Shown in pieces: positions 36,541 through 37,123 of a stretch of 37,128 bases of DNA (positions are counted from its first letter, which is position 1; every line of letters starts with the position of its first letter). Position numbers and translations under genes: made by a program. Source of the stretch: Escherichia phage PhiR68_1; the sequence record PV340575; one strand, written 5' to 3'. Below the pieces are notes generated by a model, which searched no databases, was not told the DNA's origin, and saw only the letters and a list, made by a program, of their open reading frames with translations.

Positions 36541-36584
36541 TATCATATAAATTTATGTATTTACTCACATACGGAGCATATCAG

Positions 36585-37031
36585 ATGAAAAAATCAAAAT
36601 TGCTAATCAGTACCATCATCAGCCTATTCGTACTAACCGCCTCCTCAGTCAATCACGCTCAAGAAAAAGATTTTGATCCTGAAGTGGCTGCTGATGCAGT
36701 CTTAAGGTCCGCCGGGATAGATCCAGATAAGAGTGTTGCAAATAAAGCCCCTGCCTCTGGTTTTTGGACCTGCCACGGTATTCGTATGCATATGGGCGTT
36801 GATATGGAGTCATGGACAGACCTTGATACAGGTGAACTATACACTCAGATAGAAACAGGCCAAATTGACGAACAAGACAAGGATGAAAAGATTAAAGGGA
36901 CTGATTATCTCTATGCTTTGACTAGAAATCCTGCGGTTATAAAGTATTTTATCGTTGATAAATCAGGAAAAAATCTTTATATCCGAGATGATGTGAATAT
37001 TTTTAAGACATATAAATGTAAACGAAACTGA
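36585..37031 (+). CDS. Cargo ORF: small secreted protein of unknown function
   Basis: 148 aa from ATG 36585 with GGAG 8 nt upstream; signal peptide MKKSKLLISTIISLFVLTASSVNHA; two Cys; AT-rich; no counterpart in remembered Mu map. Confidence 0.7.
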   Translation: MKKSKLLISTIISLFVLTASSVNHAQEKDFDPEVAADAVLRSAGIDPDKSVANKAPASGFWTCHGIRMHMGVDMESWTDLDTGELYTQIETGQIDEQDKDEKIKGTDYLYALTRNPAVIKYFIVDKSGKNLYIRDDVNIFKTYKCKRN

Positions 37032-37044
37032 CATACATAAAACA

Positions 37045-37123
37045 ACTGTCTCAATTGAAGCGCGAAAGTTTGAGTTTTCGTATTTTATTTGAAACGCTTT
37101 CGCGCTTTTCGTGCGCCGCTTCA
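37045..37123 (+). promoter_or_regulatory. attR: Right end (attR) with transposase-binding repeats R1-R3
   Basis: Inverted copies of the end-binding motif (GAAGCGCGAAAG, GAAACGCTTTCGCGC, TTTTCGTGCGCCGCTTCA) ending in terminal CA. Confidence 0.85.

Follow-up and report, generated by a model that had tools for sequence, protein, structure and literature searches.

D108 gene 56 in the right end of the Mu-like prophage PhiR68_1: a probable accessory cargo gene for a predicted exported barrel protein

Introduction

What is encoded between mom and the right end of the Mu-like prophage in Escherichia phage PhiR68_1 (sequence record PV340575), and what could it do for the phage or its host? The window, that is, the whole stretch of 37,128 nucleotides that was analysed, has 583 bp between the mom stop codon (36538-36540) and the right end (attR) at 37123, exactly as an earlier sequence-only reading had counted, and this interval holds an AT-rich open reading frame (ORF) of 148 codons. 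In Mu (AF083977), mom ends at position 36602 of 36717; the earlier reading was right that mom lies directly before the right end there, the distance being 115 bp, not the ~0.2 kb it had remembered. We found that the ORF is almost certainly a real gene and the ortholog of gene 56 of phage D108. The full explanation, in which this gp56 is an optional cargo of Mu-like phages, encodes an exported barrel protein and protects the cell that carries it, is given a probability of roughly 40%. The features that matter most for the argument are as follows.

36585..37031, + strand: cargo gene, almost certain ortholog of D108 gene 56, 148 amino acids (aa) plus stop (99.3% aa identity, phrog_15648, dN/dS)
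36541..36584, + strand: spacer of 44 nt from the mom stop to the ORF, with the ribosome-binding site (RBS) GGAG at 36573-36576, 8 nt ahead of the ATG (sequence, scans, alignment)
36555..37052, + strand: inserted cassette, approximate extent (megablast end points, alignment, vB_YpM_5 and Tongde right ends read directly)

The ORF Between mom and the Right End Corresponds to D108 Gene 56

The segment 36541-37060 was compared with 50,697 phage records by megablast/blastn. It is 99.2-99.6% identical to D108, Mu_3F6, vB_YpM_3 and vB_YpM_23 (99.6% at the DNA level for D108), and the cassette is absent from Mu, SfMu, vB_YpM_5, vB_YpM_6 and Tongde. Gene 56 of D108, annotated as "D108-specific protein" (ACV50316.1; GQ357916, 36697-37143), lies between mom and the right-end transposase sites, and the D108 record places two transposase-binding sites directly 3' of it. 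The same ORF is annotated as hypothetical in Mu_3F6 and vB_YpM_3/23. The window protein is 99.3% identical to the proteins of all four phages; relative to D108 gp56 it carries E74 in place of G74. It also matched phrog_15648 over residues 1-148 (E 2.5e-87), a PHROG of the category unknown function. The ORF is therefore neither new nor a discovery in itself: the D108 record has listed it at this position, with no function assigned, from the time of its deposition. By the sequence-only reading's own terms, such an annotation in Mu or D108 would count against it; D108 has one, and Mu does not. The insertion that it proposed relative to Mu was confirmed by megablast and alignment, also for SfMu.

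In the literature searched, none of the papers that compare Mu and D108 with SfMu and the Yersinia phages takes up gene 56. A literature match to "D108 + gp56" concerned RecB D1080A and gp56 of Bas34 and was discarded as irrelevant. A heteroduplex study of 1981 reportedly saw an insertion loop near the right end of D108.

The longest frame in the window opens at ATG 36555 and has 158 aa, and this upstream ATG has no RBS. At position 36582 D108, Mu_3F6 and a decayed relative (L023, described below) have T, which gives an in-frame TAG just before ATG 36585; the window has C, and this T-to-C difference from D108 removes the stop. Because the TAG stands directly ahead of ATG 36585 in these three relatives, the 148-aa start is the correct one.

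The GC content of the ORF is 38.9% (33.6% at third codon positions, GC3), compared with 49.3% for mom, 51.8% for the window and 55.4% for the late region. This value falls in the lowest 1% of 447-nt windows and agrees with the AT-richness that had been pointed out earlier. The prophage exceeds Mu by 399 bp, in line with the ~0.4 kb of the earlier estimate, and the mom-to-end interval exceeds that of Mu by 468 bp, so that the cassette more than covers the extra length. With a query starting at 35600, the megablast matches ended at query positions 922 and 955. The match to Mu and SfMu stops at ~36522, within the final mom codons; that to vB_YpM_5/6/Tongde stops at ~36555, and a different right-end type follows in vB_YpM_5 and Tongde. 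The match to the Mu-type attR restarts at ~37053 in the alignment. These homology borders on both sides delimit an inserted block of ~36555-37052, with little in it beyond the RBS and the ORF. A 12-nt direct repeat, CATATAAAT(T/G)TA, is present at the left cassette border (36544-36555) and at the 3' end of the ORF (37009-37020). It could be insertion microhomology or chance: the right copy sits in conserved codons, and short two-copy repeats frequently arise by chance.

Conservation and Distribution of the gp56 Family

Relatives of the window protein were collected by a word-indexed search of 5.8 billion proteins, which gave 16, and by an exhaustive profile search of 1.84 billion representatives, which gave 12. 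One protein of 2316 aa from the exhaustive hidden Markov model search (P0025), matched in 38 short stretches, was set aside as an apparent artefact of low complexity. The source organism names of the relatives are all Enterobacterales (E. coli, Citrobacter, Salmonella and Hafnia). The homologs are 29-57% identical, and members down to 29% keep the length, the export architecture, both cysteines and the conserved blocks PASGFWxCxGIRLHMG, KGTDYLY, NPAVxKYFIVDKxGKNLYIRDD and KxYxCKR. Compared with the 89%-identical copy in L023, the window gene has 26.5 synonymous and 18.5 non-synonymous differences, and the ratio of the two substitution rates (dN/dS) is 0.16. The conserved blocks and this ratio argue for a real gene as opposed to a chance frame, and by the dN/dS value the gene is under purifying selection.

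The family was found in only 5 of the 50,697 phage records, all of them Muvirus, and no match was detected among 72,556 plasmids. Every copy with readable neighbours (>20 loci, several divergent lineages) sits in a Mu-like prophage of Enterobacterales. Com-mom-like DNA is present in 97 of 5,426 complete E. coli genomes, and six of these 97 carry the cassette. D108, Mu_3F6, the Yersinia phages and the six E. coli genomes share the ORF at 99% conservation, and the order mom-ORF-attR was also seen in E. coli N61 and in contigs of the P0001 cluster (NCBI label Citrobacter freundii).

Two copies come from damaged loci. L023 (1-1263; Logan ERR3499260) is a decayed Mu-like right end with a fusion of the gin 3' end to the 3' half of mom; com, the mom promoter and the 5' half of mom are deleted, mom contains stops, and the gp56 homolog is intact. 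Its attR-like end has two substitutions in the terminal repeat, and the spacer before the ORF is 88 nt, vs. 44 nt in the window. In L024 (3605-4058) a frameshift splits the gp56-family gene into pieces of 74 and 81 aa; this pseudogene is otherwise 100% identical to P0003.

Two Cargo Slots and Alternation With a Second Exported Protein

Outside the D108 lineage, the usual slot of the family is between gemA and the mor/C-type activator gene, two genes upstream of the endolysin (the gemA-mor slot). Copies in this slot include P0003 (NCBI label Salmonella enterica) in L004, P0011 (Hafnia) in L006-9, P0022 in L014, P0021 in L020 and P0009 in L021. P0013 (label Salmonella) occupies it in the opposite orientation in L010-13, and the gene is also inverted in L059/60/66. 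All gemA-mor homologs are followed by a strong intrinsic terminator (hairpin AAATCCCGC-loop-GCGGGATTTTTT), and a second terminator lies 5' of the gene in L004, L015 and L020, an arrangement that is classic for morons. In L006 the gemA stop and the cargo start codon are 1 nt apart, from which the cargo would be the last gene of the early operon there. D108, its lineage and the window have a trimmed copy, RBS plus ORF only, between mom and attR (the mom-attR slot).

Right after the cargo terminator, ~10-45 nt past the stop, L004, L006, L014, L015, L019, L020 and L021 carry a -10-like element (GTATAAT, GTATACT or ATATAAT). As read from these sequences, there is a conserved terminator-promoter junction upstream of the mor/C-like gene, between the early and the next operon. 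Another motif, (T)CTGATA(A), is shared by L004, L015, L019 and L020 and was considered as a cassette promoter; it was rejected for the window because its counterpart there is the last mom codons, which are also present in vB_YpM_5, a phage with no cassette.

A GemA-profile scan of IMG/VR gave 61 Mu-like loci (L024-L084). In most of them gemA and mor are ~90 nt apart and the slot is empty; nine have a gp56-family gene (five forward, three inverted, one frameshifted), and ~10 have other small ORFs in the slot, several with signal peptides or transmembrane segments. Besides the gp56 family, at least five types of content were seen: a protein that we call cargo Y; a 159-aa signal-peptide protein with a 169-aa CxxC protein; a 140-aa ORF; ORFs of 111-113 aa with a 63-aa transmembrane peptide; and a 76-aa protein with two transmembrane segments. 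No Pfam or PADLOC match was obtained for these alternative ORFs.

Cargo Y (the P0027 family) is an uncharacterised protein of 104-113 aa with a signal peptide and two cysteines, confined to Enterobacterales. It occupies both slots: in gemA-mor it was seen only on the opposite strand, and a mom-attR copy (WP_050486066.1) is present in E. coli 2014C-3075, where it is 52% identical to the gemA-mor Y (E 1e-42). Y and gp56 are unrelated in sequence (BLASTP E 0.4). Judged from these loci, gp56 and Y, two exported proteins with no relation to each other, are exchanged between one pair of slots, and gp56 is very likely carried on a mobile accessory cassette. The optional nature of the cargo, proposed from the window alone, is thus borne out by its presence in a small minority of the E. 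coli genomes with com-mom-like DNA, by terminator-followed homologs in the other slot, and by Y in the mom-attR slot of 2014C-3075.

In this last strain (L086, 2357-3130; NZ_CP027447), Y lies at 2492-2827 between inverted-repeat hairpins that were read by eye. It is followed by a vB_YpM_5-type end remnant (..TTTTTGCGCGCTTTA, ~2984-2999), a second Mu-type mom 3' end (TCAGCCATACCCTAAGTGATCCCC) and a Mu-type attR; these nested right ends suggest recombination between two end types.

Predicted Export and Fold of gp56

Two parts of the protein were delimited.

36585..36659, + strand: signal-peptide-like N-terminus, residues 1 to ~25 (heuristic analysis of 14 homologs)
36750..37028, + strand: conserved beta-barrel domain predicted for residues 56-148, eight strands, with the C-terminal motif K-x-Y-x-C-K-R

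The n-region MKKSK (+3) is followed by a 17-residue uncharged run (residues 6-22) and then by small residues; cleavage could take place after residues 19-21 or after A25. All 14 aligned members have a positive n-region, an uncharged core of 12-21 residues and small residues at the candidate cleavage sites, and they keep this architecture at only 17% identity in the N-terminal part. No member has a lipobox, and no [ASG]-C was found at the end of the signal peptide. The 148-aa precursor thus has the architecture of a Sec-type signal peptide, and export is predicted; the mature protein would be acidic and ~13-14 kDa. The RBS, the signal-peptide-like N-terminus and the two cysteines described earlier were all seen again, in the sequence and in the family alignment.

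An AlphaFold2 model was built from a 15-sequence alignment. Its mean predicted local distance difference test (pLDDT) score is 77.6, with values >90 for residues 61-130 and <50 for residues 1-28. A variable, less certain helix (residues 32-42) and a linker precede the eight strands, which are 4-9 residues long and form a barrel of only ~93 residues. The invariant Cys63 (36771-36773) is in the first strand and the invariant Cys145 (37017-37019) in the last, so placed in the model that a C63-C145 disulfide may be inferred to close the barrel by tying these two strands together. Structural matches to the barrel were spread over lipocalin-like Tp0751, the Cap15 barrel, streptavidin/avidins and fatty-acid-binding proteins (FABPs), and further over PliC lysozyme inhibitors, staphostatin, the protease inhibitor LupI and the type VI secretion system (T6SS) immunity protein BtaiB. 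No Foldseek match against PDB and BFVD had an E value below 0.02. Searches of Pfam, NCBIfam, PADLOC and PDB sequences with the single sequence and with the profile gave nothing usable: in Pfam there was no match for the window protein at E up to 10, nor for the 15 members at E up to 5, and a PADLOC match to Csm2 (E 0.036, 12 bits) was dismissed as noise. In agreement with the earlier reading, the sequence, profile and Foldseek searches led to no functional assignment. We consider a soluble periplasmic barrel likely, and our reading of the model is that of a binding module with no obvious catalytic site.

Proposed Function and Alternatives

In Mu, com-mom is a late transcript from a C-dependent promoter. 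The window cargo probably rides on this transcript and uses its own RBS for translation. Under the explanation that we prefer, the gene would be read mainly by read-through of the com-mom late transcript. In the prophage state, some expression may also come from weak read-through out of gin. The protein would be exported to the periplasm, form its disulfide and bind an envelope target non-enzymatically, and this binding would protect the carrier cell against something from outside. The likeliest case would be superinfection exclusion, in which the entry of DNA from other (Mu-like) phages is stopped at the periplasmic stage; this mechanism is put forward tentatively and is, on balance, doubtful. 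A protective binder is preferred because the predicted fold is a binder or inhibitor scaffold and not that of an enzyme, because the gene alternates with another exported protein at hot spots, as is typical of exclusion or defence cargo, and because phages can do without it (Mu and SfMu lack it, and L024 has a pseudogene) while a decayed element has kept it. The intact ORF under purifying selection in L023 suggests a benefit that is independent of the late lytic programme. That even deeply diverged members are restricted to Mu-like prophages suggests a target particular to the biology of these phages; were the target a generic factor of the host or of an animal, the gene would be expected to have spread to plasmids and other prophages. 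A bolder suggestion, which we regard as rather unlikely, is that gp56 and Y are interchangeable members of an undescribed class of soluble periplasmic proteins of Mu-like phages, swapped between the two slots, which would block envelope transit of phage DNA or other envelope attack. If true, this would be a Mu-family-specific exclusion system built on a minimal calycin-like barrel.

A number of points weigh against the protective explanation. A consensus scan of the spacer between mom and the ORF found no sigma-70-like promoter; inspection by eye added no more than a weak TATCAT at 36541-36546 that lacks a -35 element. The window has no terminator on either side of the ORF and no stable flanking hairpin (RNA fold of -2.0 kcal/mol in the spacer). 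Given the missing promoter and terminator, and only 44 nt from the mom stop, lysogenic conversion is unproven. From the "lysogenic-conversion moron" of the sequence-only reading, the optional cargo, the insertion and the deviant composition remain, and a likely com-mom co-transcript takes the place of the prophage-state expression that the term implies. Transcription in a lysogen, which an exclusion function would favour, is likewise unproven for the window. Elsewhere, the cargo is terminator-flanked in three prophages (L004, L015 and L020) and inverted in one lineage, which implies its own promoter there and, together with the intact ORF of L023, leaves room for lysogenic conversion; L014, L019 and L021 have no terminator between gemA and the cargo, and in these three and L006 the cargo looks like an early lytic gene, not one expressed by the prophage. 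Known exclusion proteins are mostly membrane proteins or lipoproteins, not soluble periplasmic barrels. In addition, L023 is a single assembly contig of 1.26 kb, and no description of D108 gp56 was found in the literature searched.

The protein might instead be a periplasmic inhibitor, or "orphan immunity" protein, directed at a foreign envelope hydrolase such as an animal or bacterial lysozyme, a protease or a T6SS/bacteriocin effector. This would be genuine lysogenic conversion from which the host benefits, and so would come near to the sequence-only reading. We think it clearly unlikely. Pfam searches relaxed to E values of 5-10 matched neither MliC/PliC nor any other inhibitor family, the neighbourhood holds no cognate toxin gene, and the promoter scan in the window was negative. 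An inhibitor of general use should also have reached plasmids, islands and other types of prophage, whereas this family is confined to Mu-like elements. Another idea is that of a calycin-type carrier, lipocalin- or avidin-like, for a lipid, a cofactor or a signalling molecule in the periplasm. The calycin signature is GxW at the start of strand A and a basic residue at the end of the last strand. The gp56 family resembles it: where strand 1 begins, G59 never varies and 13 of 14 members have W61, the last strand closes with the conserved K146 and R147, and the structural matches do spread over lipocalin-like proteins, avidins/streptavidins and fatty-acid-binding proteins. On the other hand, a barrel of ~93 residues with short strands would usually have a filled core and no ligand cavity, the most divergent member (P0022) is without the Trp, and no sequence-profile match to any calycin family was obtained, which leaves a carrier improbable.

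A role in the lytic cycle can also be imagined. Mu is holin-less, and its exported signal-anchor-release (SAR) endolysin needs the releasin gp25 for release (PMC9239132), so that a periplasmic modulator that binds the phage's own SAR endolysin or spanin, or tunes the timing of Mu-type lysis, is conceivable. The usual slot two genes upstream of the endolysin, often as the last gene of the early operon, would suit such a helper, and in the window it would be produced at the same late stage as mom. Lysis by Mu and SfMu does not depend on the gene, however; the slot is empty in most Mu-like prophages, the unrelated Y substitutes in both slots, and the gene is kept in the L023 remnant, which lacks com and an intact mom. 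Nearly identical endolysin alleles occur with and without the gene (L025 vs. L026; L059/60/66 vs. L061-63/65/68), which led us to reject an obligatory pairing with the endolysin and to hold a lytic helper to be as improbable as a ligand carrier. That the frame is a chance ORF or a functionless, decaying remnant is hardly credible. It has no known domain, long ORFs are less rare in AT-rich DNA, and one copy (L024) is frameshifted; the retention of length, export signal, both cysteines and long invariant blocks at 29% identity, the low dN/dS, the confident fold prediction and the near-identity across phages and six E. coli genomes effectively refute it.

Mu and D108 are textbook phages, and the gene that sets apart the D108 right end is not known to have been characterised. 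What is gained here beyond the annotation is a tiny family of predicted exported barrels, seen only in Mu-like elements, placed in two slots, alternating with Y and intact in a decayed prophage end. It is an inexpensive and clearly delimited candidate with which to look for a function of transposable phages in the envelope, be it exclusion, inhibition or lysis tuning. If it proves to be a routine hypothetical protein without a phenotype, Mu biology is unchanged.

The Prophage, Its Ends and Its Mosaic Make-Up

The neighbours of the cargo gene are listed below.

35803..36540, + strand: mom, the upstream neighbour, D108/YpM-type allele (ORF list; 98% identity to Mu and D108 mom)
37053..37123, no strand: Mu-type right end (attR) with putative transposase-binding repeats, R3-like at 37056-37068, R2-like at 37090-37104 and R1 at 37106-37123 (pattern search, D108 annotation, Mu alignment)
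37124..37128 and copy at 3-7, no strand: target-site duplication TTCAA, 5 bp (ends read directly)

The window holds a complete Mu-type prophage of 37116 bp (8..37123). As read directly, the left end TGTATTG begins at 8 and the right end, ..TTTTCGTGCGCCGCTTCA / ..GCCGCTTCA, closes at 37123; the duplicated TTCAA agrees with the Mu target consensus N-Y-S-R-N. The cargo gene adjoins attR with no intervening terminator, 21 nt separating its stop codon from the first repeat. Rfam gave no match to any RNA family in 35600-37128.

From nt 8 on, the left end with the immunity region is like that of Mu and also of vB_YpM_3/23; similarity to D108, Mu_3F6 and SfMu sets in only at ~1471-1482. At its other end the prophage is of the D108 type. 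Unlike D108, then, the remainder of the window prophage has Mu-type immunity, and the combination makes it a Mu-immunity phage with D108 gene 56. For the upstream gene, the records of D108, Mu and E. coli N61 give the product as Mom. Its C-terminus (36522-36540) reads ..PYPKSSSD* in the window and D108, ..PYPK* in Mu and SfMu, and ..PYPKSTPD*, a variant extension, in vB_YpM_5 and Tongde. The latter two (L016 and L017, 2440-2525) have a different right end ~85 bp past mom, with a repeated GGTATCAAA and the terminus ..TTTTGCGCGCTTTA; such a divergent end in otherwise 97%-identical Muvirus phages points to a different set of transposase end sites.

Comparison With Known Systems

Small, non-essential, exported proteins encoded at variable loci are known among envelope exclusion proteins, e.g., Sp and Imm of T4, Sim of P1, Llp of T5 and Cor of phi80. 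The likeness of gp56 to these would be an analogy of role only: PHROG and Pfam searches showed no sequence similarity to them, and several are membrane-anchored or lipoproteins, whereas gp56 has neither a lipobox nor a transmembrane segment beyond its signal peptide. Without a lipobox cysteine it is not a phage lipoprotein of the Bor/Cor/Llp type. Nor is it an outer-membrane barrel of the Lom/Ail/OmpX type, given the lack of a Pfam match, the strands of 4-9 residues and the C-terminus ..CKRN. It would act in the manner of small periplasmic barrel binders, but it belongs to none of the profiled families. There is no sequence or profile similarity to PliC/MliC, to serralysin inhibitors (LupI/Inh) or to staphostatins; identities are 10-13%, and the likeness to these inhibitors is no better than that to avidins or designed barrels. 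In the model, gp56 does show the up-and-down antiparallel barrel of 8-10 strands that defines the calycin superfamily (lipocalins, avidins, FABPs and metalloprotease inhibitors). Like it in habit is Y, also a small signal-peptide protein with two cysteines in the same two slots, shorter and unrelated in sequence.

The term moron was defined for lambdoid phages and has been applied to Pseudomonas Mu-like phages (PMC4378225). Like phage morons, gene 56 is a single extra ORF of deviant composition between otherwise adjacent features, present or absent among close relatives; its homologs elsewhere are terminator-followed, terminator-flanked at three loci and inverted in one lineage. Unlike morons, the cassette in the window is cut down to an RBS and an ORF, no promoter or terminator was detected with it, and it probably travels as a passenger in the mom operon and not as a unit of its own. 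By its insertion and composition, it is a phage moron in the broad sense.

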